Virus record (IMG/VR): IMGVR_UViG_3300023184_005116
Location: 38,758-102,757 of that record
Length of the DNA: 64,000 nt
Strand: one strand, 5' to 3'
Source: a virus
The position numbers and the translations under genes are program-made. Positions 32,112 to 64,000 of the stretch are shown here, piece after piece. The notes below the pieces were generated by a model, which was not told where the DNA came from, did not search any database, and saw nothing but the letters and a program-made list of their open reading frames with translations. The first letter of the stretch is position 1. Each line of letters opens with the position of its first letter.

Positions 32112-34481
32112 ATGGAAGTAATAAAAAGAGATGGATCAAAAGAAAGGGTAAAATTAGATAAGATCCTAAATCGTGTTAAAAAACAATGTTATGGCTTAAA
32201 TATGGATTACATCGAGCCAATGGAAATTGCAAAAAAAGTAATTCATGGTTTATATGATGGTATTTCTTCCGTTGAGTTAGATACGTTAGCAGCTGAAACT
32301 GCTGCAGCTTTAACCCCGACACATCCGGATTATTCAATACTTGCCGCAAGAATTTCAATTACTTCTTTACATAAAACAACTCCTAAAAGTTTTTCACAGG
32401 TTATAGAGCAACTATATAGCTATGTTGATCCTAATACTGGGCAAAAAGCTCCTATGATTGCTGATGATGTTTATCAGATCATTATGGATAACTCAAAAGA
32501 TATAGATTCTCAGATAATTACTGATAGAGATTTGGACTATGATTATTTTGGGTATAAAACTTTAGAAAAATCATATCTTTTAAAAATCAATGGTAGCCCA
32601 GCAGAAAGACCACAGCAAATGATTATGCGTGTTGCTATTGGTATACATAAAACGGATCTAGCTTCTGCTTATAAAACATATGATTTAATGAGCCAAGGAT
32701 TCTTTACTCACGCAACACCTACTCTATTTAATTCAGGGACAAGAAGGCCACAATTATCTTCTTGTTTTTTAGTTTCAATGCAAGATGATTCAATTCAAGG
32801 TATTTATAAAACCTTGGCTGATGTAGCACAAATATCGAAAAATGCAGGAGGTATTGGTTTACATATCCATAATATTAGAGGTACAGGTTCATATATTAAA
32901 GGAACAAATGGTAATTCTAATGGGATCATTCCTATGTTAAAAGTATTTAACGAAACTGCTAGATATGTTGATCAAGGCGGTGGTAGAAGAAAAGGATCTT
33001 TTGCAGTTTATTTAGAGCCTTGGCACTGTGACGTAGAAGACTTTTTAAATCTTAGAAAAAATCACGGTAAAGAGGAAATGAGGGCTAGAGATCTTTTCTT
33101 AGCTTTATGGACTCCTGATTTATTCATGGAAAGGGTTAAAGAAAATGGGGATTGGACATTATTTTCACCTGATGAAGCACCAGGTTTAGCAGATGCTTGT
33201 GGTGATGAATTTAAAAAACTTTATACAAAATACGAATCACAGAATAAAGGAAGAAAGACTATAAAAGCTCAAGATCTTTGGTACAAAATAATTGAAGCTC
33301 AAATAGAAACTGGAGTTCCTTATATTCTTTATAAAGACGCTGCTAACCAAAAATCGAATCAAAAGAATTTAGGTACTATTAAATCTTCTAATCTTTGTAC
33401 AGAAATTATTGAATATTCTGATTCTAAAGAAACTGCAGTTTGTAATTTAGCTTCTATTGCTCTCCCTAAATTTATTATCCCTGGGAAAAAACCTAAGTAT
33501 GATTTTGCAGCACTAAAAGATATTGCTTATGTCTGTACTTTTAATTTGAATTGTGTAATTGATGTAAATTACTATCCAACAAAAGAAACAAAAACATCTA
33601 ATATGAAACATCGTCCTATCGGGATAGGTGTTCAAGGATTAGCAGACACTTTTGCTATTTTAAAAATAGCATTTGATTCAGAAGAAGCTAAACAATTAGA
33701 TCGAGAAATATTTGAAACAATCTATTATGGAGCTATGGAAGCTTCAGTAGATCTAGCAGAAAAAGATGGTGCTTACGAATCATTTGAGGGATCACCTTTG
33801 TCTAAAGGATTATTTCAATTTGATCTATGGAACGAAACCCCTTCAGATCGTTGGGATTGGGAAACATTAAGAGCTAGGGTGGTTAAGTCAGGTTCTAGAA
33901 ACTCTTTATTACTTGCACCTATGCCTACAGCATCAACAAGTCAGATCTTAGGTAATAATGAATGCTTTGAACCATTTACATCTAACATCTATATTAGAAA
34001 GACATTATCTGGGGAATTCCCAGTAGTTAATAAGCATCTTGTTAAGGATCTTGTTAAATTAAATCTTTGGAGCGAATCATTAAGAGATAAGATCATTATC
34101 AATAATGGATCAGTACAGGAAATTGATGCCATTCCTAATGATCTAAAAGCTATTTATAAAACAGCTTGGGAAATGAGTCAAAAAATAATTATTGATCATG
34201 CTGCAGCTAGAGGACCATTTATATGTCAAAGTCAAAGTATGAACTTGTTTGTTCAGGAGGCTAATTTTGCAAAGCTATCATCCGCTCATTTTTATTCATG
34301 GAGCAAAGGATTAAAAACAGGAAGTTACTATATTAGAACTAAAGCTGCTGCAACAGCAATTAAAGGTTTAGGAATTGATATGAATAAATCCGATGTTATA
34401 ATAAAAAACGAGGATGAAAACTATAGCGATTTAACATGTAGCATTGACAATCCGGAAGATTGTGAAGCTTGTGGATCATAA
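32112..34481 (+). CDS. nrdA: Ribonucleotide reductase class Ia alpha subunit
   Basis: ATP cone [38 protein letters not shown]-terminal CEAC. Confidence 0.97.
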
Positions 34482-37461: not shown

Positions 37462-39247
37462 GCAAGCAAATAAAGAAATTAAGGTACTTTCAGAAAGGGA
37501 TCATATCCTTTTAAGACCTACTGTTTATGTAGGTAGTGTTAAACCAACAGACGAAAAATTACCTATTGTAAGGGATAAAAAATTATTCGTAGAGCAAAGA
37601 ACCATATCAGTAGGTATGTACAAACTGTTTGATGAAGTTTTTTCAAATTCATTAGACGAGGCTAAAAGGATGGGTGGTAAAATGCAAAAAATTACCATTA
37701 ACATAGACTCATCAAAAAATTCGGTTTCAATAAAGGATACTGGTAATGGATTCTACAAAGGAACTGAAATAAATTCAACAAGTGGAAAAAGTAATATTGA
37801 AACAGCGGTTTCACAGCTAAGGGCAGGATCAAATTTTGATAATGACGATATTGAGGAATCACTAGTTGGAACAAATGGAATGGGTGTTAGCTTAGTTAAC
37901 GTTCTTTCTGAATACTTCAGTATAGAAACTATAAATGATAAATTTTACTATTTTCAAGATTGGAAAAATTACGAAGCTAATAATCCTCAAAAATCTAGTA
38001 AAACACCAGGAATGAAAGCAGGAACGGCTGTTTCCTTTATACCTTTATCTGAAGTTTTCGGACATTCTAAATGGGATAAAGAGGTTTTATCCTCAATCTT
38101 AATATTAAAGTATGACTTGATTAAAAGAGATCCTGTATTAGGAAAGCTTGAGATAGAACTAAATTGGGACGGAAGAGGTATAGATCTTAATGTAGATTTT
38201 GTAACGGAAGACTCTTTTAAAATCAATACTGAAATTGGACAAATTACTATATGGGAAAAATATGAGGGATCCGGTTCTTTAAGTTTTGTAAACTCCGCCC
38301 TTTGTACAGGAATACACCAAAAAATAGTAAACGATTTTATCAATGAAAAACTTGATGATACTTTAGGACACCATTTTTATGATTCACTTATAGTTTTAAA
38401 CTTACCCCCTAAATATGTCAAATTTGGCGATCAAAACAAGACTAGGTTTGTTACCACAAGAGAAGAGATCGAAAGTGTCTTAACGAGCAAGTTTGGATCC
38501 AAATTACAGACATTTTTTAAGACTGAACTGTATGAGAATATTTTAAAAAAGGTAGAAGAGCGTAAGAACGATGGGTATGTTAAGAAACTTAGATCTGAAA
38601 AGAAAAAGGTTAATCTTAAGCATTCTCATAAATATTTCCCAGCACAAAAATCAGTAGCAGAAAATCTATTTATAGTGGAGGGTCTTTCTGCAATGGGATC
38701 TATCCTACAGAAAAGAAACCCAAAGGAAGATGGTGTTTATGCACTAAAGGGTAAAATAAAAAACTGTAAGAACATTGGGGATCTTTCTGACAACAAAGAA
38801 ATATTAGAACTAATGCACATTCTTGGATTAGACCCAACTGCAAGAAATTCTGAAATTGTAGGTTATAAAAGAATAGTAATCGCTACCGATCCTGACCCTG
38901 ACGGCTCACACATTACATCTTTAATAATCAATTTATTCTATAAATGGTTTCCCACAGTAGTTAGAAATAAAAGATTAGGCTCATTAAAAATCCCACTGGT
39001 ATCTGTTGGGGATGGCAAAAAAAGGAAATACTATTGGGACTTAGAGGAATTTAAAAATGCTAAGCCCTCTGGTAATGTTAGGTATTTAAAAGGCCTAGGA
39101 TCTTTAGCTCTTGATGACTGGGATTGGGTAATGAAAGATAAATCGCTTTTAATTATAGAGGATAGTCAAGATAGTAAGGAAAAGCTAGAAATGGCTTTTG
39201 GAGATTCTTCAGAAGCAAGAAAAAGGTGGCTTTCGAATCAAAAGTAG
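37454..39247 (+). CDS. Type II DNA topoisomerase, ATPase/TOPRIM subunit (gp39+gp60-like)
   Basis: HILLRPTVYVGS, EVFSNSLDE, DTGNG, GTNGMG, VEGLSA, LKGK, TDPDPDGSHI, YLKGLGS. Confidence 0.92.
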   Translation: MAKQANKEIKVLSERDHILLRPTVYVGSVKPTDEKLPIVRDKKLFVEQRTISVGMYKLFDEVFSNSLDEAKRMGGKMQKITINIDSSKNSVSIKDTGNGFYKGTEINSTSGKSNIETAVSQLRAGSNFDNDDIEESLVGTNGMGVSLVNVLSEYFSIETINDKFYYFQDWKNYEANNPQKSSKTPGMKAGTAVSFIPLSEVFGHSKWDKEVLSSILILKYDLIKRDPVLGKLEIELNWDGRGIDLNVDFVTEDSFKINTEIGQITIWEKYEGSGSLSFVNSALCTGIHQKIVNDFINEKLDDTLGHHFYDSLIVLNLPPKYVKFGDQNKTRFVTTREEIESVLTSKFGSKLQTFFKTELYENILKKVEERKNDGYVKKLRSEKKKVNLKHSHKYFPAQKSVAENLFIVEGLSAMGSILQKRNPKEDGVYALKGKIKNCKNIGDLSDNKEILELMHILGLDPTARNSEIVGYKRIVIATDPDPDGSHITSLIINLFYKWFPTVVRNKRLGSLKIPLVSVGDGKKRKYYWDLEEFKNAKPSGNVRYLKGLGSLALDDWDWVMKDKSLLIIEDSQDSKEKLEMAFGDSSEARKRWLSNQK

Positions 39248-57992: not shown

Positions 57993-58146
57993 ATCGTTTT
58001 TTTGTTTTCTTTATATATTCATTCTACTCGCGAACTCCGAGAATTTTTCAAAGAACATTGAAATTTTTTATGTTTATGTCAGTATATTATACATCTCCAG
58101 CAGTTTAAGGGCTTAAAAATCCTTTTTCTTGCTTCTCCATATACCG

Positions 58147-58181
58147 AAAAGCCCGATTCTTTTTTTAGAATCGGGTTTTTT
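58147..58181. terminator. Intrinsic terminator-like hairpin, possibly bidirectional
   Basis: aaaag-cccgattct-N6-agaatcggg-tttttt. Confidence 0.7.
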
Positions 58182-58210
58182 ATTCGGGAATTTTCTATTA
58201 TAATTGCGGT

Positions 58211-58750
58211 ATGAAGTTTATGACATTTTTAGAGCTATTGCAAAATACAAATCCTCCACACTCTGTTATGTTTCGTTTAGAAGCATTAAAGGGGTTAAGA
58301 GAAAGACCTGATTTCCATCCAGAGGAAAGCGCTTTCGAGCATATTAAGATTGTGACTGAAAGACTTATGCAGACTAATGATCCTGATCTTATTTTAGCTG
58401 GATGTTTGCACGATCTATTTAAACACGATACAGTAAAGATTAATCCTAAGAACGGATTTCCAACCTGTCCTGGGCATGATACCGAAGTAGCAAAATTTAT
58501 TTGGTCTAATGAAGAAGTGCAAGAATGGATTAAAGGGTTAGGGGCGGACGTTGATACTGTTGCAAATCTTTGTAAAGATCATATGAGATTTCATCAGTTT
58601 GATCAGATGAGAAGGGTTAAACAACAAGAGTTTATGAGTAGACCTCATTGGGGTAAACTAGAATTTCTTGGAGCAGCAGATAATATGCTAGAAGAATTTG
58701 ATATTGATAATTTAGAAAAATCCTGGAAATGGAAAAGAAGTACGATTTAA
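58211..58750 (+). CDS. HD-domain phosphohydrolase
   Basis: FHPE...EH, LHDLFK, GHD, HMR, AD. Confidence 0.8.
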   Translation: MKFMTFLELLQNTNPPHSVMFRLEALKGLRERPDFHPEESAFEHIKIVTERLMQTNDPDLILAGCLHDLFKHDTVKINPKNGFPTCPGHDTEVAKFIWSNEEVQEWIKGLGADVDTVANLCKDHMRFHQFDQMRRVKQQEFMSRPHWGKLEFLGAADNMLEEFDIDNLEKSWKWKRSTI

Positions 58751-59814
58751 ACATACTTAAGGAATATATTGATGCCGGATTGGTCGAAAAAAACGACCAT
58801 CCAGTTTATCCTATTTCTATTTACAACTACAGTAGGGATTGTCAGTTTGAAAAAAAGTGGGATAATATTACCTTAAATATGAGAGGTACTATTCTCGATA
58901 CGCAAGGAAATCTGATAGCAAGAACATTTCCTAAATTCTTTAATATGGAAGAAATGGAAACAATTCCCAATGAAGAATTTGATGTGTTTGAAAAAATGGA
59001 CGGATCTTTGGGGATACTTTTCTATTATGAAAATGAATGGATATTATCTACAAAAGGTTCTTTTTCTTCCGATCAAGCAGTAAAAGGATTTGAAATGCTT
59101 AGTTCTTATGATTACCAAAAGTTACATAAGGATTATACCTACCTCTTTGAGATTATCTATAATGAAAACCGTATAGTTTGTCAATATGATTTTGAGGATC
59201 TTGTTTTACTTGGGATGATAGAAAACAAAACGGGGTATGAGGTAGATCTTTACGAAGATGGTAATGATATAAGATTAAAAAATCTAATAAACAATATTGG
59301 ATTTAAAATAGTCAAAAAATACTATGGAATAGAGGACTACAGGAAGCTAAAAACATTAATTGAAAATAATCATGAAGGATTTGTTCTTAGGTTTAAATCT
59401 AAATTAAGGATGAAAATAAAAGGTGAGGAGTATGTAAGATTGCACAGACTCCTTACAAATTTCTCCAATGTCGATATTTGGGAAAGCCTTATGCTGGGTA
59501 AAGATCTTAGTCTTATGCTAGAAAAAGTCCCTGATGAATTTGATAGCTGGGTTAGAAATGTCATCTATGATCTTAAAATAAAGTTTAAGGTTAGAGAAGA
59601 ACGTGCAAAAGAGATTATGTATAATCTGATAACTAACAAGGGTTTATCAAGAAAGGAGATAGCTGAAATACTTAATTTTGAAACATCCATGAATAGGACT
59701 ATAATATTCTGTATGTTGGACGGAAAAGATTACTCAAGCATTATCTGGAAAAACATTAGGCCAGTTTATCAAAAGCCTTTTTGGTATAAAGAAGATGAAA
59801 ATTATACAAATTAA
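58729..59814 (+). CDS. RNA ligase 1 (T4 Rnl1-like)
   Basis: FPKFFN, EKMDGSLG, TKGSF, LFEII, EGFV, KIKGEEY. Confidence 0.88.
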   Translation: MEKKYDLNILKEYIDAGLVEKNDHPVYPISIYNYSRDCQFEKKWDNITLNMRGTILDTQGNLIARTFPKFFNMEEMETIPNEEFDVFEKMDGSLGILFYYENEWILSTKGSFSSDQAVKGFEMLSSYDYQKLHKDYTYLFEIIYNENRIVCQYDFEDLVLLGMIENKTGYEVDLYEDGNDIRLKNLINNIGFKIVKKYYGIEDYRKLKTLIENNHEGFVLRFKSKLRMKIKGEEYVRLHRLLTNFSNVDIWESLMLGKDLSLMLEKVPDEFDSWVRNVIYDLKIKFKVREERAKEIMYNLITNKGLSRKEIAEILNFETSMNRTIIFCMLDGKDYSSIIWKNIRPVYQKPFWYKEDENYTN

Positions 59815-59872
59815 TAATTATAAATATGACTGAACCATTAACAAAAGGTTATGTAAACAAAAATATTACTTA

Positions 59873-59997
59873 TAACGATACTCAGATATATTCAGTTGTT
59901 TATTAAATAATAAAAAATATGATTACAGAAGAAAAATACTTAAAAGCATTACAGGTTGTTAAAGACTATGAAAAACAATTGAATATATCTGTTGTTA
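59873..59997 (-). repeat. attC-like site, long class (125 bp)
   Basis: TAAC gatact CAGATATATTCAGTTGTTT ... AAACAATTGAATATATCTG tt GTTA. Confidence 0.8.
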
Positions 59998-60098
59998 GAT
60001 GTAGTTGCGAACCAGTAAAAACTAAAGATGAAAATGGTAATGGATTATTTGTGAGTCCTTGGTGTTGGAAGTGCAACACTTGGTGCAATTACATCTAA
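59919..60098 (+). CDS. Cassette protein, Cys-rich; not in ORF track
   Basis: Manual translation, 59 aa MITEEKYLKALQVVKDYEKQLNISVVRCSCEPVKTKDENGNGLFVSPWCWKCNTWCNYI; stop is the TAA of the next TAAC. Confidence 0.65.
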   Translation: MITEEKYLKALQVVKDYEKQLNISVVRCSCEPVKTKDENGNGLFVSPWCWKCNTWCNYI

Positions 60099-60217
60099 CG
60101 TATAGATGCAAAAGCAGTTTAATTTTAATTATATGACAAAGAAACAAAAAGTAGAAGAAGCTATCAAAGAAGCAGAAAAGGAATTAGAACGCCTTAAATT
60201 GCTTTTACATAGTGTTA
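60096..60217 (-). repeat. attC-like site, long class (122 bp)
   Basis: TAAC gtatag ATGCAAAAGCAGTTTAA ... TTAAATTGCTTTTACAT agt GTTA. Confidence 0.8.
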
Positions 60218-60306
60218 GTGGCAGTGCTTTAGAAGTATGCCCCTATTGTAAAACTAAAAATAGACATTGGTATGCAAAAGATTATTGGTGCTGTTCGTTT
60301 TGTTAG
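60133..60306 (+). CDS. Cassette protein with Zn-ribbon-like C-terminus
   Basis: MTKKQKVEE...HSVSGSALEVCPYC...CCSFC; starts inside the attC loop. Confidence 0.6.
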   Translation: MTKKQKVEEAIKEAEKELERLKLLLHSVSGSALEVCPYCKTKNRHWYAKDYWCCSFC

Positions 60307-60315
60307 CATTGCCAC

Positions 60316-60432
60316 TAACGGTTGGGTGTATATGTAGTGATTTACACTGAACTTTATTAGAAGAAATGAATATAATTATTAACAGACAAGGTTGATTAGA
60401 TGTAGTAAAATCATTACATATACACCCTGTTA
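60316..60432 (-). repeat. attC-like site (117 bp)
   Basis: TAAC ggtt GGGTGTATATGTAGTGATTT ... AAATCATTACATATACACCC t GTTA. Confidence 0.85.
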
Positions 60433-60464
60433 TAAGTAGTAAAACAAAAATAAACTAAACAGAT

Positions 60465-60758
60465 ATGGAAACCTTTAGAGAAAAACAAGAAAAATTTGAT
60501 AAATTAATTTCAGAACTTAATTCTGATTTTATTTGTGGTGCAGCAGTTGGAACAAAAGTAAAAGATAGTTCTTTGTATATAGCGGAAGAGTCAACAAAAA
60601 TTTATGGTACTGAAAAATACAAAATAGGAACATTTAACCAAAAAAGTGTAATTATTGACCCACATATTAAATGGGGAGATATGAGAATTTTTGATGAATC
60701 TGGAACGGAATTAATTAATTTATCAAATTTTGGATTTGATATAATGGATATGATTTAA
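60465..60758 (+). CDS. Cassette hypothetical protein
   Basis: 97 aa ORF filling one cassette. Confidence 0.6.
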   Translation: METFREKQEKFDKLISELNSDFICGAAVGTKVKDSSLYIAEESTKIYGTEKYKIGTFNQKSVIIDPHIKWGDMRIFDESGTELINLSNFGFDIMDMI

Positions 60759-60829
60759 TTTTTGTTTTATTTCATTTATACTTTGTTATGTTTAACGAAG
60801 TGTAGTTGTGAGGAACGAACAATTAAACA

Positions 60830-60877
60830 TAACGGATGAGTGTAAAAAATCGTTTTAATGTTTTTTACACTTTGTTA
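60830..60877 (-). repeat. attC-like site, short class (48 bp)
   Basis: TAAC ggatg AGTGTAAAAAA tcgttttaatg TTTTTTACACT tt GTTA. Confidence 0.85.
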
Positions 60878-60905
60878 TAAGTATGTAAAACAAAAATTAT
60901 ACAAT

Positions 60906-61067
60906 ATGAAAGTAAAAATAATAAAAGAACACAATGGAATACCAGAGGGTTCAGTGATACATGTGGAAAAAGAATTGAAAAACGATTACAAAGGAATTTG
61001 GTCAAGTATGATGGGTTCTTATACAGTTAAGGTAAAGAAGAAATATTGTGAAATTAAAAACTCATAA
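60906..61067 (+). CDS. Cassette hypothetical protein
   Basis: 53 aa from ATG 60906. Confidence 0.55.
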   Translation: MKVKIIKEHNGIPEGSVIHVEKELKNDYKGIWSSMMGSYTVKVKKKYCEIKNS

Positions 61068-61085
61068 TTTTTGTTTTATTACTTA

Positions 61086-61211
61086 TAACGTATGGCAGCT
61101 AAACGCTGTTGGAGATTTGAAACACTAAATTATAAACTTAAAATAAAATTAATATGAAAAACAAAACTTCAAACTTAGACAAAACCGCCAATAGCGATTT
61201 AGGTGTTGTTA
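61086..61211 (-). repeat. attC-like site, long class (126 bp)
   Basis: TAACG...CTAAACGCTGTTGG ... CCAATAGCGATTTAG...TGTTA. Confidence 0.75.
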
Positions 61212-61384
61212 GCGGTAGTTTAACTCATATTCCACTATTTCAGTATATTGCTGCGGTGGAAGCACATAAGAACACGTTAGATTTACTTGCAATAGTACAA
61301 AATGACAAAAAGGAATTGAAATTAGATTTAGAAGCAGCATATAAAGAAATTGACCGATTGAACGTCAAACTAAATTACCGCTAA
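61154..61384 (+). CDS. Cassette coiled-coil protein
   Basis: Starts inside the attC loop and reads GVVSGS across the core; stop is the TAA of TAAC. Confidence 0.6.
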   Translation: MKNKTSNLDKTANSDLGVVSGSLTHIPLFQYIAAVEAHKNTLDLLAIVQNDKKELKLDLEAAYKEIDRLNVKLNYR

Positions 61385-61429
61385 CGTCCCATGATAAACA
61401 ATCGTTTTAATGTTGTTTATCATTTGTTA
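61382..61429 (-). repeat. attC-like site, short class (48 bp)
   Basis: TAAC gtccc ATGATAAACAA tcgttttaatg TTGTTTATCAT tt GTTA. Confidence 0.85.
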
Positions 61430-61472
61430 GGTTTTGTCATTAATTTGTTTTACCTTTGTAAAAATTAAAAAT

Positions 61473-61691
61473 ATGGAAAATAAAAACACAAACGAAGAAC
61501 TTGAGTATTTTCAAAATAAACTCAAGGAAACTATGGGTAAAGGATTACCTAAAAAATATCTTGAAACAACTGACTTGGGTGAAGTCGATAAGGAATATAA
61601 ACATAGATTCAAAGAACGAATTGAAAAACACTTAACAGAAGTTGATAGAATTAAAAATATGATAGGCGATTCAAAACAAATTAATGATTGA
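61473..61691 (+). CDS. Cassette hypothetical protein
   Basis: 72 aa from ATG 61473; TACCTTTG at 61451 matches the Bacteroidota -7 element. Confidence 0.55.
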   Translation: MENKNTNEELEYFQNKLKETMGKGLPKKYLETTDLGEVDKEYKHRFKERIEKHLTEVDRIKNMIGDSKQIND

Positions 61692-61694
61692 ACC

Positions 61695-61781
61695 TAACGG
61701 TTGGGTATATACGAAGTACCCATATCACGAACTTTAAATTTAGTACAAACCTTAATGGGGTATTTCGTATATACCTTGTTA
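61695..61781 (-). repeat. attC-like site, medium class (87 bp)
   Basis: TAAC ggttg GGTATATACGAAGTACC ... GGTATTTCGTATATACC tt GTTA. Confidence 0.85.
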
Positions 61782-61796
61782 TAAACTGTAAAAATT

Positions 61797-61985
61797 ATGG
61801 ATTTAACACACGAACAAAAATTAGAAAAGAAACAAATAGTTAGAGATGAACTGAAAGGGAAGATAAAACATCTTTATATGTCATTTCTAAGTGAAATGGA
61901 AACACAATATCCACCTTGGTTAAATAAAGATGATGTTATTAATGTTTTGTCTTCCCTGATATTAGATGAGACGAAACTTAAATAA
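61797..61985 (+). CDS. Cassette hypothetical protein
   Basis: 62 aa ORF filling one cassette. Confidence 0.55.
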   Translation: MDLTHEQKLEKKQIVRDELKGKIKHLYMSFLSEMETQYPPWLNKDDVINVLSSLILDETKLK

Positions 61986-61998
61986 TTTTTATTGTTTA

Positions 61999-62046
61999 TA
62001 ACGATTGCAAATAAAACATCGTTTTAATGTGTTTTATTTGTTGTTA
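61999..62046 (-). repeat. attC-like site, short class (48 bp)
   Basis: TAAC gattg CAAATAAAACA tcgttttaatg TGTTTTATTTG tt GTTA. Confidence 0.85.
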
Positions 62047-62083
62047 TGTTTTAGTTTTAAAAATTTTATACAAATAAAAAAAT

Positions 62084-62329
62084 ATGAAATACGAAAGAGA
62101 ATACCAAGTGTTTGCAAAAGAAATAACCGATAAGTTTATATCAATGGTTACTGGTGAATTACCAACGCAATGTTTTTGTGGAGAAATGTCTGATGGGCCA
62201 AGTAGAATACCAACAGAAGAAGAGCAACGAGAATTTTTTAAAGAAAATAACAAATATGCGTTGGAGTGGTTGAACAAAAATATGGTGACTTATGACGAGT
62301 GGATTGCGAAGCATAAAACAAATTCATAA
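62084..62329 (+). CDS. Cassette hypothetical protein
   Basis: 81 aa ORF filling one cassette. Confidence 0.6.
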   Translation: MKYEREYQVFAKEITDKFISMVTGELPTQCFCGEMSDGPSRIPTEEEQREFFKENNKYALEWLNKNMVTYDEWIAKHKTNS

Positions 62330-62347
62330 AATTTTTAAAATTAAACA

Positions 62348-62434
62348 TAACGGTTGGGTATTGGCGAAGTGCCACCAGTACAAACTTAAATTCAAGGCAC
62401 AAACTATCTGTGGCATTTTGCCAATACTGTGTTA
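62348..62434 (-). repeat. attC-like site, medium class (87 bp)
   Basis: TAAC ggttgg GTATTGGCGAAGTGCCAC ... GTGGCATTTTGCCAATAC tgt GTTA. Confidence 0.85.
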
Positions 62435-62480
62435 TAGGTAGTTGTTTTAAAAATTAGCGTTGGCATTAAATGGTTTAAAT

Positions 62481-62762
62481 ATGAAAATTCCAAATACAAC
62501 AGACGAAAAACCTTATATTGAATTTAGAATTGATAAAAAAGGTAAAATTAAATTATCAGCTACATCAAATTGGTGGGGAGGAAAAAATGCTGGTTTCTCA
62601 TCTTCTGATGGAACGGAAGGTAATACTTGCGAACCAAAGCATTTAAAAGCATACATTAAAGCATTTAAAGAGAAAAAGATTAAGAATATTGAGAAAGAAA
62701 TTTTAGCATTACAAAAGCAATTAGAAGTTGTTGAATCTGAAACCGAGCGTTGGGATTTTTAA
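62481..62762 (+). CDS. Cassette hypothetical protein
   Basis: 93 aa from ATG 62481 (alternative GTG 62460). Confidence 0.6.
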   Translation: MKIPNTTDEKPYIEFRIDKKGKIKLSATSNWWGGKNAGFSSSDGTEGNTCEPKHLKAYIKAFKEKKIKNIEKEILALQKQLEVVESETERWDF

Positions 62763-62774
62763 AACAATTACCTA

Positions 62775-62900
62775 TAACGTTTTGCGGCTAACAGAAGTTG
62801 GCGATTACGAAGCACAAATTTTCAATTATAAAAAAAATTAAATACAAAGCAATGAACTACAATAAACCACAAAGCCGCCAATTTTTGTTAGGTGCTGTTA
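62775..62900 (-). repeat. attC-like site, long class (126 bp)
   Basis: TAACG...CTAACAGAAGTTGGCG ... CGCCAATTTTTGTTAG...TGTTA. Confidence 0.8.
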
Positions 62901-63091
62901 TAGGTAGTATTTTGAGGTTGGGTTTCAAGATTATTAATTGCAATCACTTTAAAATGAAAGCACATAACGGTAAACCTTATTATAAAAGTATTGTAAAAAT
63001 TAAGGGATTTAGAACTGCTGTCGTTGACAGATATGATGGAAATAGAAGTACAAATAGGTTTTATTGGCGTGTCGGCAAATATTACCTATAA
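62852..63091 (+). CDS. Cassette basic protein
   Basis: MNYNKPQSRQFLLGAVIGS...; starts inside the attC loop; stop is the TAA of TAAC. Confidence 0.6.
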   Translation: MNYNKPQSRQFLLGAVIGSILRLGFKIINCNHFKMKAHNGKPYYKSIVKIKGFRTAVVDRYDGNRSTNRFYWRVGKYYL

Positions 63092-63136
63092 CGGTTGATG
63101 ATAAACAATCGTTTTAATGTTGTTTATCATTTGTTA
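63089..63136 (-). repeat. attC-like site, short class (48 bp)
   Basis: TAAC ggttg ATGATAAACAA tcgttttaatg TTGTTTATCAT tt GTTA. Confidence 0.85.
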
Positions 63137-63179
63137 TAAGTATGTATTATTTTTGTTTTACCTATTAAAAAATTAAATT

Positions 63180-63395
63180 ATGACACAAGAAAAACTAATT
63201 GAAATTTGGGACACTATACCAAATAAACATAAAAATTATAGTGGGGTTGAGGTAGTTGGTGAAATTGAAATTATGGGATATTTCACGAGAAAAGAATTAG
63301 ATGTTGCTGAGAAAAAAGGTTGGTTGTATAATAATCATGCTGAGTATGATATGGGAGAACCATCTTATAATTTAATAAACTCAAAACAAAAATAA
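63180..63395 (+). CDS. Cassette hypothetical protein
   Basis: 71 aa ORF filling one cassette. Confidence 0.6.
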   Translation: MTQEKLIEIWDTIPNKHKNYSGVEVVGEIEIMGYFTRKELDVAEKKGWLYNNHAEYDMGEPSYNLINSKQK

Positions 63396-63404
63396 TATTA
63401 CTTA

Positions 63405-63491
63405 TAACGGCTGGGTATATGTGAAGTACCTTACCACAGAACTTAATAATTTAGTAGAAACATTATAAGGTATTTCACATATACCTTGTTA
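63405..63491 (-). repeat. attC-like site, medium class (87 bp)
   Basis: TAAC ggctg GGTATATGTGAAGTACCTTA ... TAAGGTATTTCACATATACC tt GTTA. Confidence 0.85.
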
Positions 63492-63507
63492 TAAAACGTT
63501 TTATTTT

Positions 63508-63723
63508 ATGGAAAATAATATTGAAAAATGGATGAAAGAGTGGGTTGATAGAACATCAAAAGTTAAATATGAAAACTCTTTCAATGAGAAGAGTGATGAA
63601 TGGATTGAGATTGAAGGTATTGGTAGATTTAAAGGACTTGAGATTGTCTCAGAAGAACATCAAGATATAAATGAGATAACAATCAATCTCAAATATGATG
63701 TGTGGGATAAAAATGTTTTATAA
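63508..63723 (+). CDS. Cassette hypothetical protein (integrase-proximal cassette)
   Basis: 71 aa; stop is the TAA of the terminal TAAC. Confidence 0.6.
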   Translation: MENNIEKWMKEWVDRTSKVKYENSFNEKSDEWIEIEGIGRFKGLEIVSEEHQDINEITINLKYDVWDKNVL

Positions 63724-63745
63724 CTATATTATATATGCAACTCTA
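63718..63745 (-). other. Candidate attI-like site
   Basis: The last TAAC is followed by T rather than G and by no hairpin; minus strand reads GAGTTGCATATATAATATAG|TTATAA; lies between array and integrase. Confidence 0.55.
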
Positions 63746-63776
63746 GTTAATTGATTCATTATTAATACTTTAGAAC

Positions 63777-64000
63777 ATGAAAAAGACCGACTATTACAAG
63801 ATTTGCGAACAAAAATTGAAGTACTTGAATTATTCGGACAGAACGGTTGAGTGTTATCTTTCCTATATAAATCAGTTTTTGGATAGAATAGAAATTCCAC
63901 CTACTCGGCTAGGTTCACAAGACTTTCAATCCTATTTGGACAACTATAAATTCACTTCGGTTTCTCAACAGAATCAAGTAATATATGCAATCAGATTTCT
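63777..64000 (+). CDS. intI: Integron-integrase-like tyrosine recombinase, N-terminal SAM-like domain (truncated by window end; not in ORF track)
   Basis: Manual translation MKKTDYYKICEQKLKYLNYSDRTVECYLSYINQFLDRIEIPPTRLGSQDFQSYLDNYKFTSVSQQNQVIYAIRF matches the IntI/Xer N-terminal pattern YSxRTxxxY..P..L....S.SxxNQ...A..F; catalytic domain not visible. Confidence 0.75.
   Translation, partial: MKKTDYYKICEQKLKYLNYSDRTVECYLSYINQFLDRIEIPPTRLGSQDFQSYLDNYKFTSVSQQNQVIYAIRF

Follow-up and report, generated by a model that had tools for sequence, protein, structure and literature searches.

The window analysed here, a stretch of 64,000 nucleotides ending where its contig of 102,757 bases ends, belongs to a large T4-like phage from lake water, in which a cassette array and the phage's own recombinase gene lie side by side. 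The contig is estimated to make up 34% of a genome of roughly 300 kb, and the window also encodes a split family-B DNA polymerase, topoisomerase II subunits, a helicase and RNR. The left flank of the array is an RNA ligase gene (58729-59814, + strand; Pfam PF09511 RNA_lig_T4_1, E 2.9e-17), which lies outside the system and serves as context only. An independent Logan contig from run X1, which may be the source sample of the phage contig, covers positions 58123-60395 (2273 nt, 0 differences). Because it spans the RNA ligase gene into cassette 3, the left junction is no assembly seam, and the continuity at about 59.8 kb, raised as a check in a preliminary description of this DNA, is confirmed.

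Twelve units, a docking site and a recombinase gene

Twelve sites of the form TAAC-hairpin-GTTA were read in the sequence, and all hairpin starts given in the preliminary description, from 59873 to 63405, proved right. A scanner alone recovered 11 of the 12; the one missed (61086-61211) has an indel in its stem and is supported by a computed fold. The sites fall into three size classes (48 nt, 87 nt and 117-126 nt) and are confined to a 3.6-kb stretch of the contig, with none elsewhere on the + strand and about 0.6 per contig expected from shuffled sequence. One doubtful site match lies on the opposite strand of the contig, outside the array. Behind every site stands a single short + strand ORF of 53-97 aa, in the alternation described before, and four of these ORFs begin inside the hairpin loop. 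A unit begins with the C of a TAAC and ends with the TAA of the following one, with the structured site first and one gene behind it.

All units, hairpins and ORFs listed below are on the + strand. Cassette 1 (59873-60095; score of the bracketing inverted repeat, 10) comprises a hairpin of 125 nt (59873-59997) and a Cys-rich ORF of 59 aa (59919-60098), which opens within the hairpin loop and ends in the following TAAC. Cassette 2 (60096-60315; bracket score 10) carries another Cys-rich ORF (60106-60306, 66 aa) and a hairpin of 122 nt (60096-60217), whose 17-bp stem, with one mismatch and one G.T, is a long-range stem not chosen by the MFE fold. For cassette 3 (60316-60829; hairpin 60316-60432, 117 nt; ORF 60465-60758, 97 aa) the bracket score is only 1 when measured against the next intact TAAC, and its tail (about 60760-60829) looks from its letters like a degenerate site remnant, with TATAC for TAAC and then GTTATG..TTAACG. 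The earlier estimate of about 13 cassettes therefore becomes 12 intact units plus this short apparent remnant. Cassette 4 (60830-61085; hairpin 60830-60877, 48 nt; ORF 60906-61067, 53 aa) has a bracket repeat of 25 nt, read from the sequence at 60874-60899 and 61066-61090. Cassette 5 (61086-61381) has the imperfect hairpin of 126 nt that the scanner missed (dG -12.4 on the + strand, -8.5 on the - strand) and an ORF of 76 aa (61154-61384) starting in the loop and stopping in the next TAAC; this unit (61083-61386) also occurs in run X2, with different flanks. Position 61382, the edge of cassette 6 (61382-61694; hairpin 61382-61429, 48 nt; ORF 61473-61691, 72 aa; bracket score 17.5), is the exact starting point of nine blastn alignments to other phage loci.

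Cassette 7 (61695-61998; hairpin 61695-61781, 87 nt; ORF 61797-61985, 62 aa; bracket score 13.5) is followed by cassette 8 (61999-62347; hairpin 61999-62046, 48 nt; ORF 62084-62329, 81 aa; bracket score 10), whose hairpin and leader (61998-62081) are 98.8% identical to positions 407-490 of related locus L008, the ORFs being unlike. The entire unit of cassette 9 (62348-62774; hairpin 62348-62434, 87 nt; ORF 62481-62762, 93 aa; bracket score 19) is held by a contig from X4 (62347-62785) with a different left flank. Cassette 10 (62775-63088; bracket score 11) has a hairpin of 126 nt (62775-62900; dG -14.8 on the + strand, -7.0 on the - strand) and an ORF of 79 aa (62852-63091) whose start again lies in the loop and whose stop falls in the following TAAC. 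Cassette 11 (63089-63404; hairpin 63089-63136, 48 nt; ORF 63180-63395, 71 aa) precedes cassette 12 (63405-63720; hairpin 63405-63491, 87 nt), which adjoins the docking site, its bracket repeat pairing with sequence just 5' of the TAAC at 63721 (score 10) and its ORF (63508-63723, 71 aa) stopping within the TAA of that hairpin-less TAAC (63721-63724). None of the ten window cassette ORFs tested had a significant Pfam or PHROG match; the anti-defence role proposed for the cassettes finds no support in the window, and any function given to these genes would be a presumed one.

The attI-like docking site (63721-63776, + strand) consists of this TAAC followed by TATATTATATATG and the recombinase gene leader, and has TAAC alone in common with the hairpins. 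The recombinase ORF opens 56 nt from the start of the TAAC; both had been reported and were found again. The window holds the 5' part (74 codons) of this tyrosine recombinase gene (63777-64000, + strand; Pfam PF13495, E 2.3e-10), which is cut by the contig end, so that the system, called apparently complete before, is truncated in this contig. The gene shares its strand with the cassette ORFs and, contrary to what had been assumed, is not divergent from the array.

Anatomy of the sites

The 142 distinct sites collected from relatives also form three length classes, each site consisting of an R box (TAAC/GTTA), a bulge on the 5' arm, a covarying stem and a variable loop. The spacers measure 5 nt on the 5' side and 1-2 nt on the 3' side in 116 of the 142, the 5' spacer is longer in all, and the bulge of 3-4 nt is constantly on the same (5') arm. 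In the 48-nt class, 99.7% of cells are paired and compensatory double changes occur in 9 of the 11 stem pairs, a level of covariation matched by none of 500 shuffles. Stem mismatches are G.T (160), T.G (19) and A.C/C.A (10). The + strand gives the more stable fold at 131 of 141 sites (p 7e-23) and at 11 of the 12 window sites, a bias that could be explained by a G.U-tolerant RNA structure, the folding strand being the sense strand too. Moreover, the sequence behind the GTTA of one site pairs, across the ORF, with the sequence before the TAAC of the next (mean 8.1 bp; at least 8 bp in 55%; n = 188), compared with means of 1.4 for local extension and 1.6 for non-adjacent sites; such own-end pairing would be expected of units that are each able to form a circle. 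In 146 of 155 units the + strand carries the longest ORF.

The recombinase and unit-precise variation in related phages

Fifty viral relatives of the window recombinase were found, with full-length orthologues of 266 aa. R132, K157, H216, R219, H242 and Y251 are invariant across 17 full-length orthologues, bearing out the expected catalytic residues. The orthologues lack about 48 aa of the IntI-specific segment, the part that touches the extrahelical bases of attC, and reach 146-158 bits with TIGR02249 (IntI), below its cutoff of 265, which rules out an identification as IntI; of the proposed IntI/Xer assignment, the N-terminal match to PF13495 stands and the IntI part does not. The nearest solved folds are VchIntIA (2a3v) and XerA.

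The array lies directly upstream of the recombinase gene, on the same strand, in about 40 of the 50 viral loci, with almost no sites downstream, and the TAAC-TAtnaTATAT motif about 56 nt 5' of the gene is kept in most of them. Some relatives with broken recombinase ORFs (L018, L046/47, L052, L054-57) still hold arrays. Nineteen pairs of loci are at least 93% identical over the 200 nt to the right of the docking TAAC; in 13 of these pairs the 60 nt on its left side show no relationship (25-55% identity), the identical run there being 0-2 nt only. Homology between near-identical loci stops at the 5' edge of the docking TAAC. The cultured Polaribacter phages Freya_1 to Freya_10, which are 99.4-100% identical in the stretches compared and carry an integrase of 38.5% identity, range from 0 cassette ORFs to more than 10 small ORFs upstream of this gene. 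Their indels are whole units, every one bounded by AAC: a 304-bp unit adjoining the docking site is present in Freya_10 and absent from Freya_9, and in Freya_1 the backbone is joined straight to the docking site without any hairpin. Related phages therefore gain and lose one-gene units exactly at the site adjoining the recombinase gene, and the comparison suggested in the preliminary description yields cassette-precise differences at the AAC core. No window cassette recurs among the 50 related loci, so mobility has been demonstrated for the relatives and not for these 12 units.

PeSLs are promoter-terminator modules of T4-type phages (PMC2839356, PMC4122927), and like the window sites they are conserved stem-loops that flank small variable orphan genes in plastic T4-like regions and mediate shuffling. 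The hairpins could accordingly be regulatory modules of this kind (terminator, RNA-processing or promoter) between small early genes, with the genes shuffled by homologous recombination between modules and the adjoining recombinase otherwise employed. PeSLs act so in T4-type phages (PMC2839356, PMC4122927), the window phage is T4-like, every intergenic gap holds one site, the best fold is on the sense strand with G.T (G.U) pairs, and hairpin and leader are up to 98.8% identical between unrelated units, which would also allow homologous recombination of the PeSL kind. We nevertheless consider this explanation unlikely. Homology ends exactly at the docking site in the 13 locus pairs, although only TAAC is common to it and the hairpins, and the Freya_1 joint has no hairpin. 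The bracket repeat that each ORF has of its own would be needless for a local regulatory hairpin, the sites adjoin the recombinase gene in about 40 of the 50 loci and occur nowhere else in the genome, and neither intrinsic terminators (1 vs 1.2 expected) nor sigma-70 promoters (26 vs 27.4 expected, in a scan that left Bacteroidota-type promoters outside) are enriched. PeSLs rely on homologous recombination with no dedicated recombinase or docking site, in contrast to the invariant AAC/GTT core, own-end repeats and core junctions without flanking homology of the window array.

An ordinary lysogeny integrase, with TAAC as attP and with adjoining variable DNA left by aberrant excision or other illegitimate events, is a very improbable alternative. 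Temperate phages typically show variable DNA beside attP and int, the gene is annotated and so read in Freya, Danklef, Leef and Ingeline, and Bartlau et al. interpreted the Freya integrase as pointing to a temperate lifestyle (PMC8776804). However, the variable DNA here consists of tandem one-gene units with the same structured site and their own end repeats, and the indels are whole units with the core at both borders. Lysogeny would, in addition, be unusual for a phage of about 300 kb with T4-like replication genes.

A classical integron or CALIN of bacterial origin, acquired through host capture or chimeric assembly, is hardly credible despite the AAC/GTT cores, the IntI-like N-terminal domain and the host-derived integrons that temperate phages do hold (PMC9892861), given that the enzyme lacks the IntI segment and scores under the IntI cutoff, the site design is unlike the canonical attC beside a canonical IntI in a Nitrospirota genome (G002), the same module lies within viral contigs of 256-362 kb, one contig links the RNA ligase gene and the array, and the 48-nt site class, present in at least 120 viral stretches, was absent from all 401 Flavobacteriales genomes searched.

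Proposed mechanism and comparison with known systems

We therefore favour, with a probability of about 0.78, an integron-like cassette platform that the phage carries and that a short tyrosine recombinase related to Xer and IntI operates. Good support for the cassette reading comes from the observed site anatomy, polarity, covariation, own-end pairing, linkage to the recombinase and unit-precise differences among related phages. The system is not a classical integron, being integron-like in build with a shorter and different enzyme; the integron reading of the preliminary description is thus partly supported, for a cassette platform, in a large T4-like phage, that combines attC-like folded sites, a docking site like attI and an adjoining tyrosine recombinase, and fails for IntI. 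On the model of attC x attI recombination, and of XerCD acting on the folded CTX-phage hairpin, the + strand of a site would fold, and the recombinase would bind the R box and the first stem turns and cut at TAA|C. The cut strand would be exchanged with TAA|C at the docking site, which lies 56 nt 5' of the recombinase's own gene, inserting circular units beside that gene, and units may be excised via hairpin-by-hairpin recombination. We infer that the phage enzyme catalyses this exchange and that the substrate is single-stranded. Since all cassette genes point towards the recombinase gene, they are not expressed from an integron-style common promoter directed outward from the docking site.

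As in classical integrons (IntI, attI and attC cassettes; for example class 1 IntI1 and Vibrio cholerae IntIA, PDB 2a3v), the 5' end of the recombinase gene faces the docking site, behind which units of mostly one gene stand in tandem, each with an imperfect, AAC/GTT-closed hairpin at the end distant from the docking site. The crossover is AA|C, both ends of a unit pair, the cassette genes are extremely diverse and mostly orphans, and new units turn up beside the docking site. Unlike classical integrons, the phage has an enzyme of 266 aa without the IntI-specific region, and spacers of 5 nt vs 1-2 nt that create the bulge of 3-4 nt on the crossover arm, whereas canonical attC has a symmetric unpaired spacer and extrahelical bases on the other arm; the sites resemble attC in their AAC/GTT-closed folding and not in this spacer. 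Nor does the canonical layout claimed earlier hold, as every ORF is turned round with respect to canonical cassettes and reads the same way as the recombinase gene. Four of the ORFs begin inside the loop, and the array is carried by a large phage of lytic type.

Short XerA-like recombinases (NCBIfam NF040815, 'site-specific tyrosine recombinase/integron integrase') adjoin attC-like arrays in bacterial MAGs. These cellular enzymes (e.g. L068, Nitrospirota) belong to one protein family with the phage enzyme, being 40-52% identical to it, equal in length and likewise without the IntI insertion, and the L068-type sites share the design TAAC-5 nt-stem..stem-1 nt-GTTA. In L068, by contrast, the recombinase gene reads into the array and the ORFs, which by our reading include a toxin-antitoxin-like pair, are in canonical orientation; the cellular proteins pass the NF040815 cutoff of 220 bits (224-250), whereas the phage proteins fail it (184-195). 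Xer-type enzymes without the IntI insertion can use a folded hairpin that mimics a core site, as in CTX-phage integration at dif, and Xer sites can bracket movable gene modules, as in the pdif modules of Acinetobacter plasmids. Both systems use host XerC/XerD and dif-like 28-bp sites; the window enzyme, in contrast, is phage-encoded and its sites are long bulged hairpins in a tandem array.

The preliminary description listed cellular chromosomes, plasmids and transposons as carriers of integrons, but integron parts in phages were already published: Qi et al. (2023) surveyed 10,705 isolate genomes with IntegronFinder/HattCI and reported 17 CALINs, read as integron components without an integrase, together with 3 complete integrons of host origin in temperate phages (PMC9892861). 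That study described no phage-encoded short recombinase, docking site or lineage-wide conservation, and made no link between such sites and a short recombinase of phage origin (PMC9892861). Like the window array, its CALINs include attC-like sites carried by virulent phages, for instance Polaribacter phage P12002L; in an attC x attI1 assay, IntI1 recombined one site of this phage (PMC9892861). In our own scan, the hairpins of P12002L are of the same site type as those of the window array.

An array of 12 hairpin-ORF units in a large phage

The array lies at the 3' end of an IMG/VR virus record of 102,757 bases, estimated to be 34% complete, of which the window represents the final 64 kb, so position 64000 is the end of the contig. 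The + strand of the window encodes a family-B DNA polymerase (in two parts), two subunits of topoisomerase II, a helicase and a ribonucleotide reductase, and the array is carried by a large T4-like phage. In run X1, a lake-water metagenome, 88% of the sampled words of the window are present.

Every hairpin listed in the preliminary description was borne out on reading positions 59000-64000. A purpose-written scan required a stem of at least 9 and its return arm, separated by a loop and set off by short spacers from TAAC at the start and GTTA at the end. It found 11 sites at 59873-63491; the rest of the + strand, in the window and in the entire contig, contained no others, and shuffled sequence gave approximately 0.6 sites per contig. 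A twelfth site (61086-61211), outside the 11 scanned, has an indel in its stem, yet folds. Behind each site lies one + strand ORF of 53-97 aa, the final one ending at the TAA of a TAAC (63721) that lacks a hairpin. The earlier estimate of about 13 cassettes is accordingly lowered to 12 units, with a degenerate remnant in addition at about 60760-60829. There, after the ORF of cassette 3 and before the next intact site, a cassette-end-like repeat has TATAC in place of TAAC, followed by GTTATG and TTAACG, and may be what is left of a unit that decayed or was empty. An Rfam search of 59000-64000 returned chance miRNA-like matches only (E ≥ 4.7). The array is real and highly non-random, and it belongs to a conserved phage module.

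When 10 cassette ORFs were scanned against Pfam and PHROG, none had a significant match, so no function, including the anti-defence role raised earlier, can be assigned to them. The two leftmost cassettes encode Cys-rich mini-proteins with the pattern C..C...C..C (ORFs 59919-60098 and 60106-60306). These two cassettes have a 220-bp period, each with a hairpin of approximately 120 nt that holds the start codon in its loop. None of the window ORFs upstream of the recombinase gene recurs in 50 related viral loci, save for one partial N-terminal match; the hairpin-encoded N-terminal 22-30 residues are 76-100% identical to those of otherwise different ORFs in other phages.

Site anatomy, probable crossover point and docking site

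The anatomy of the sites was analyzed in 142 distinct sites from related loci, whose lengths cluster at approximately 48, 87-90 and 124-128 nt. TAAC is followed by a 5-nt spacer with the consensus GGTTG; the spacer on the GTTA side measures 1-2 nt in 116 of the 142 sites and is never longer than the 5' one. When folded with DNA parameters, the sites show an R box, then a 3-nt bulge on the 5' arm, which is the arm carrying the crossover, and then an uninterrupted stem. These are imperfect hairpins closed by AAC...GTT cores and, as attC sites are, defined by their structure and not by sequence. Stem mismatches on the + strand are G.T in 179 of 210 cases versus A.C in 10, and the + strand fold is the more stable one at 131 of 141 sites.

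Sites of the 48-nt class have an 11-nt loop, TCGTTTTAATG, that hardly varies: nine of its 11 positions are the same in 21 of 21 sequences. TAAC and GTTA are likewise nearly invariant. The stems of this class carry compensatory double changes at 9 of 11 pairs, with 99.7% of cells pairing, a level reached by none of 500 shuffles. In the window this loop occurs at 60853-60863, 61405-61415, 62022-62032 and 63112-63122, with covarying stems. The 48-nt pattern was detected in at least 120 viral stretches and was not found in the 401 Flavobacteriales genomes searched, a result that falls short of proving absence and points to no host. In four lake metagenomes, the bins holding hairpins (60744-63551) have summed contig depths of 100-2700, versus approximately 8-12 for the phage-unique parts, indicating that the site modules are extremely abundant in lake water.

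Comparison of the units places the putative crossover at the left TAAC, as TAA|C on the + strand. Hairpins and ORFs tile 12 times and are followed by a bare TAAC, the start codons of four ORFs fall within the loop of the preceding hairpin, and many blastn alignments to other loci start exactly at TAAC. Moreover, 19 locus pairs share 93-100% identity over 200 nt on the right side of the docking TAAC; in 13 of these, the 60 nt on its left side are unrelated, the identity extending just 0-2 nt leftwards. With the crossover at this position, the + strand would be the 'bottom' strand in integron terms, and the site would lie at the unit end distal to the docking site, as in integrons. The docking site itself is attI-like, with a motif, TAAC-TAtnaTATAT, conserved approximately 56 nt upstream of the recombinase gene.

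A unit may circularise and rebuild a site from its own two ends, in which case pairing between these ends is expected. Such pairing is found across the ORFs, between the sequence after GTTA and the sequence before the next TAAC, with a mean of 8.1 bp and 55% of cases at 8 bp or more, compared with 1.4 for local and 1.6 for non-adjacent controls.

The nearest phage precedent is the PeSL modules of T4-type phages (PMC2839356, PMC4122927), in which a terminator-like stem-loop is coupled to an early promoter of sigma-70 type. A scan limited to promoters of that type and to terminator-like sites showed no enrichment of either here; the likely host uses promoters of other types.

A short recombinase related to Xer and IntI

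The recombinase ORF opens 56 nt past the docking TAAC and ends at the contig edge after 74 codons, within which the SAM-like N-terminal domain PF13495 is recognized (E = 2.3e-10). Relatives of the 74-aa fragment are encoded in 50 viral contigs, the full-length proteins having 266 aa. Since the window gene is cut by the contig end, the presence of the IntI-specific segment was assessed on these orthologues. A full-length orthologue matches PF00589 (E = 2.2e-36) and has a tyrosine recombinase fold. The catalytic residues, a point raised in the preliminary description, are in place in the orthologues, the R-K-H-R-H-Y set (R132, K157, H216, R219, H242 and Y251) being invariant in 17 of 17 diverse ones.

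The identification of the enzyme as an IntI, by contrast, was not upheld. Aligned to VchIntIA (2a3v), orthologue residues 18-172 correspond to 17-175 and residues 214-262 to 265-313, so that IntI residues 176-264 (89 aa) are skipped where the phage protein has 41 aa. By this alignment, the orthologues lack the segment specific to IntI, which in that enzyme separates the KGxKxR hairpin from the HxLRH box. They score 146-158 bits on the IntI profile TIGR02249, matched in two stretches (cutoff 265), and 93-100 bits on NF011946 (cutoff 435). The best profile is the XerA-like NF040815, on which two phage orthologues reach 184.2 and 195.2 bits; they have the fold and catalytic set of this family but remain under its cutoff of 220. 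In an AlphaFold model (pLDDT 80), VchIntIA and archaeal XerA come out almost level as the closest solved folds, the top Foldseek matches being 2a3v, 5hxy and 4a8e; the predicted fold fails to tell IntI from XerA as the nearest neighbour. Metagenomes contain very many members of the family, named XerD in their source annotations.

In L018, L046/L047, L052 and L054-L057, all related viral loci, the recombinase frame stops early, at 152, 137, 75, 41, 27 and 32 aa. Arrays still lie upstream of most of these shortened genes, with none found in L054. The early-stopped ORFs may represent genes that have decayed or been interrupted.

Proteins with 40-52% identity are found in metagenome-assembled genomes (MAGs) of Bacteroidota, Nitrospirota and other phyla. 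These cellular relatives score 224-250 bits on NF040815 (cutoff 220), and several of them adjoin hairpins in which 5 nt follow TAAC and 1 nt precedes GTTA (5/1 type). In a Nitrospirota MAG (G002), a short recombinase with 250 bits on NF040815 reads into a 5/1-type array whose ORFs have the canonical orientation, and a true IntI (412 bits on TIGR02249) lies elsewhere beside a canonical attC with 5/6-nt spacers, indicating that the two site types go with two enzyme types. Across loci L147 and L068, this one genome holds a canonical IntI with a canonical attC and two short recombinases, one of which adjoins 5/1-type sites and a toxin-antitoxin-like cassette. A TIGR02249 search of 14 control genomes detected no IntI over the cutoff, a single canonical IntI having been obtained in all.

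Related loci and relation to integrons

In approximately 40 of the 50 viral loci, the recombinase gene is immediately preceded, on its own strand, by an array. Contigs of 256-362 kb, in which phage genes continue on both flanks, are among these loci. A PHROG scan of the flanks of one locus (L009) returned nothing informative. Only the hairpin and leader are conserved between loci, and ORFs are almost never common to them. L020 and L021 are 95.5% identical from -58 through the recombinase gene, and the units adjoining their docking sites differ.

The cultured Polaribacter phages Freya_1 to Freya_10 carry a 38.5% identical integrase, which was taken by the authors of the genomes as a sign of a temperate lifestyle (PMC8776804). 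It emerged with a full-length orthologue as query; the 74-aa fragment gave no tblastn match in isolate phages. In the stretches compared, these phages are 99.4-100% identical to each other. The backbone of Freya_1 is joined straight to the docking site, Freya_10 carries approximately 4.9 kb of small ORFs there, Freya_9 is without exactly the 304-bp unit adjoining the docking site, Freya_5 is without 3.2 kb, and Freya_6 has a different unit. Every junction in the series falls at an AAC core. Cassette-precise change, looked for by the preliminary description as gain, loss or reordering in related phages, is thus documented for relatives, namely the Freya series and the viral loci. Single window units do occur within other flanks in other lake runs. 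Contigs from four lake runs cover the array piecemeal, with joints mostly from the massively repeated hairpins, and no circles or deletions of this phage were seen among them.

The integron is generally seen as a device of cells, reliant on IntI and the special domain of that enzyme. The present array shares with them the AAC/GTT cores, the structure-defined sites, the docking site and, in its relatives, unit-precise change, but it differs in the enzyme, the inner architecture of the sites and gene orientation. Canonical attC sites have a roughly symmetric unpaired spacer and extrahelical bases on the R''/L'' half, whereas the phage sites have 5 nt versus 1-2 nt. The canonical layout proposed at first does not hold either: all 12 window ORFs, and 146 of 155 units in relatives, point toward the docking site, whereas a common promoter would need them to run away from attI. 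By enzyme, inner site architecture and gene orientation, the array is not a classical IntI/attI/attC integron.

The best reading, to which we assign a probability of roughly 0.78, is that a short recombinase related to Xer and IntI drives an integron-like platform of cassettes. More broadly, the window is probably one instance of a separate integron-like lineage, in which a short Xer-like recombinase captures and excises one-gene units via bulged single-strand hairpins, and which is widespread in large lytic phages of lakes and seas and has a relative in bacterial genomes. Such an enzyme would work without the segment thought necessary for integron chemistry. If so, phages would gain a site-specific way of trading accessory genes. 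Confirmation would show folded-hairpin cassette recombination to be independent of the IntI insertion, and would offer both a mechanism behind the regions of orphan genes in large phages and a route for gene exchange between phages, possibly with hosts too. Searches based on IntI miss such a platform. Because the cultured Freya phages and their Polaribacter host are available and already differ by whole units, this reading can be tested at the bench.

In the literature found, phage integron reports concern only host-derived integrons and integrase-less attC clusters, and no paper ties the present sites to a phage-encoded short recombinase. A screen of 10,705 phage genomes by Qi et al. (2023) identified 17 attC clusters lacking an integrase, one of them in Polaribacter phage P12002L, and, in temperate phages, three integrons derived from hosts; one P12002L site was recombined by IntI1 (PMC9892861). 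A paper describing a new lineage of large phages from aquatic habitats names no integrase or integron (PMC12619734). In our scan, sites of the present type were seen in P12002L beside methyltransferase genes; no relative of the short recombinase was found in this phage among the best 30 of 243 tblastn records. Its hairpins of the present design (32224-32280, 38036-38089, 38880-38935 and 39126-39244) flank DNA methyltransferase and Mom-like genes.

In the window, an RNA ligase gene (58729-59814) lies directly upstream of the array. In four related loci, L015 (approximately 953-1444), L017 (1337-1653), L050 (11311-11684) and L037 (2224-2330), the recombinase gene is directly followed by a homologue with 68-76% DNA identity, indicating that the array-plus-recombinase module sits on either side of the ligase gene in different phages.
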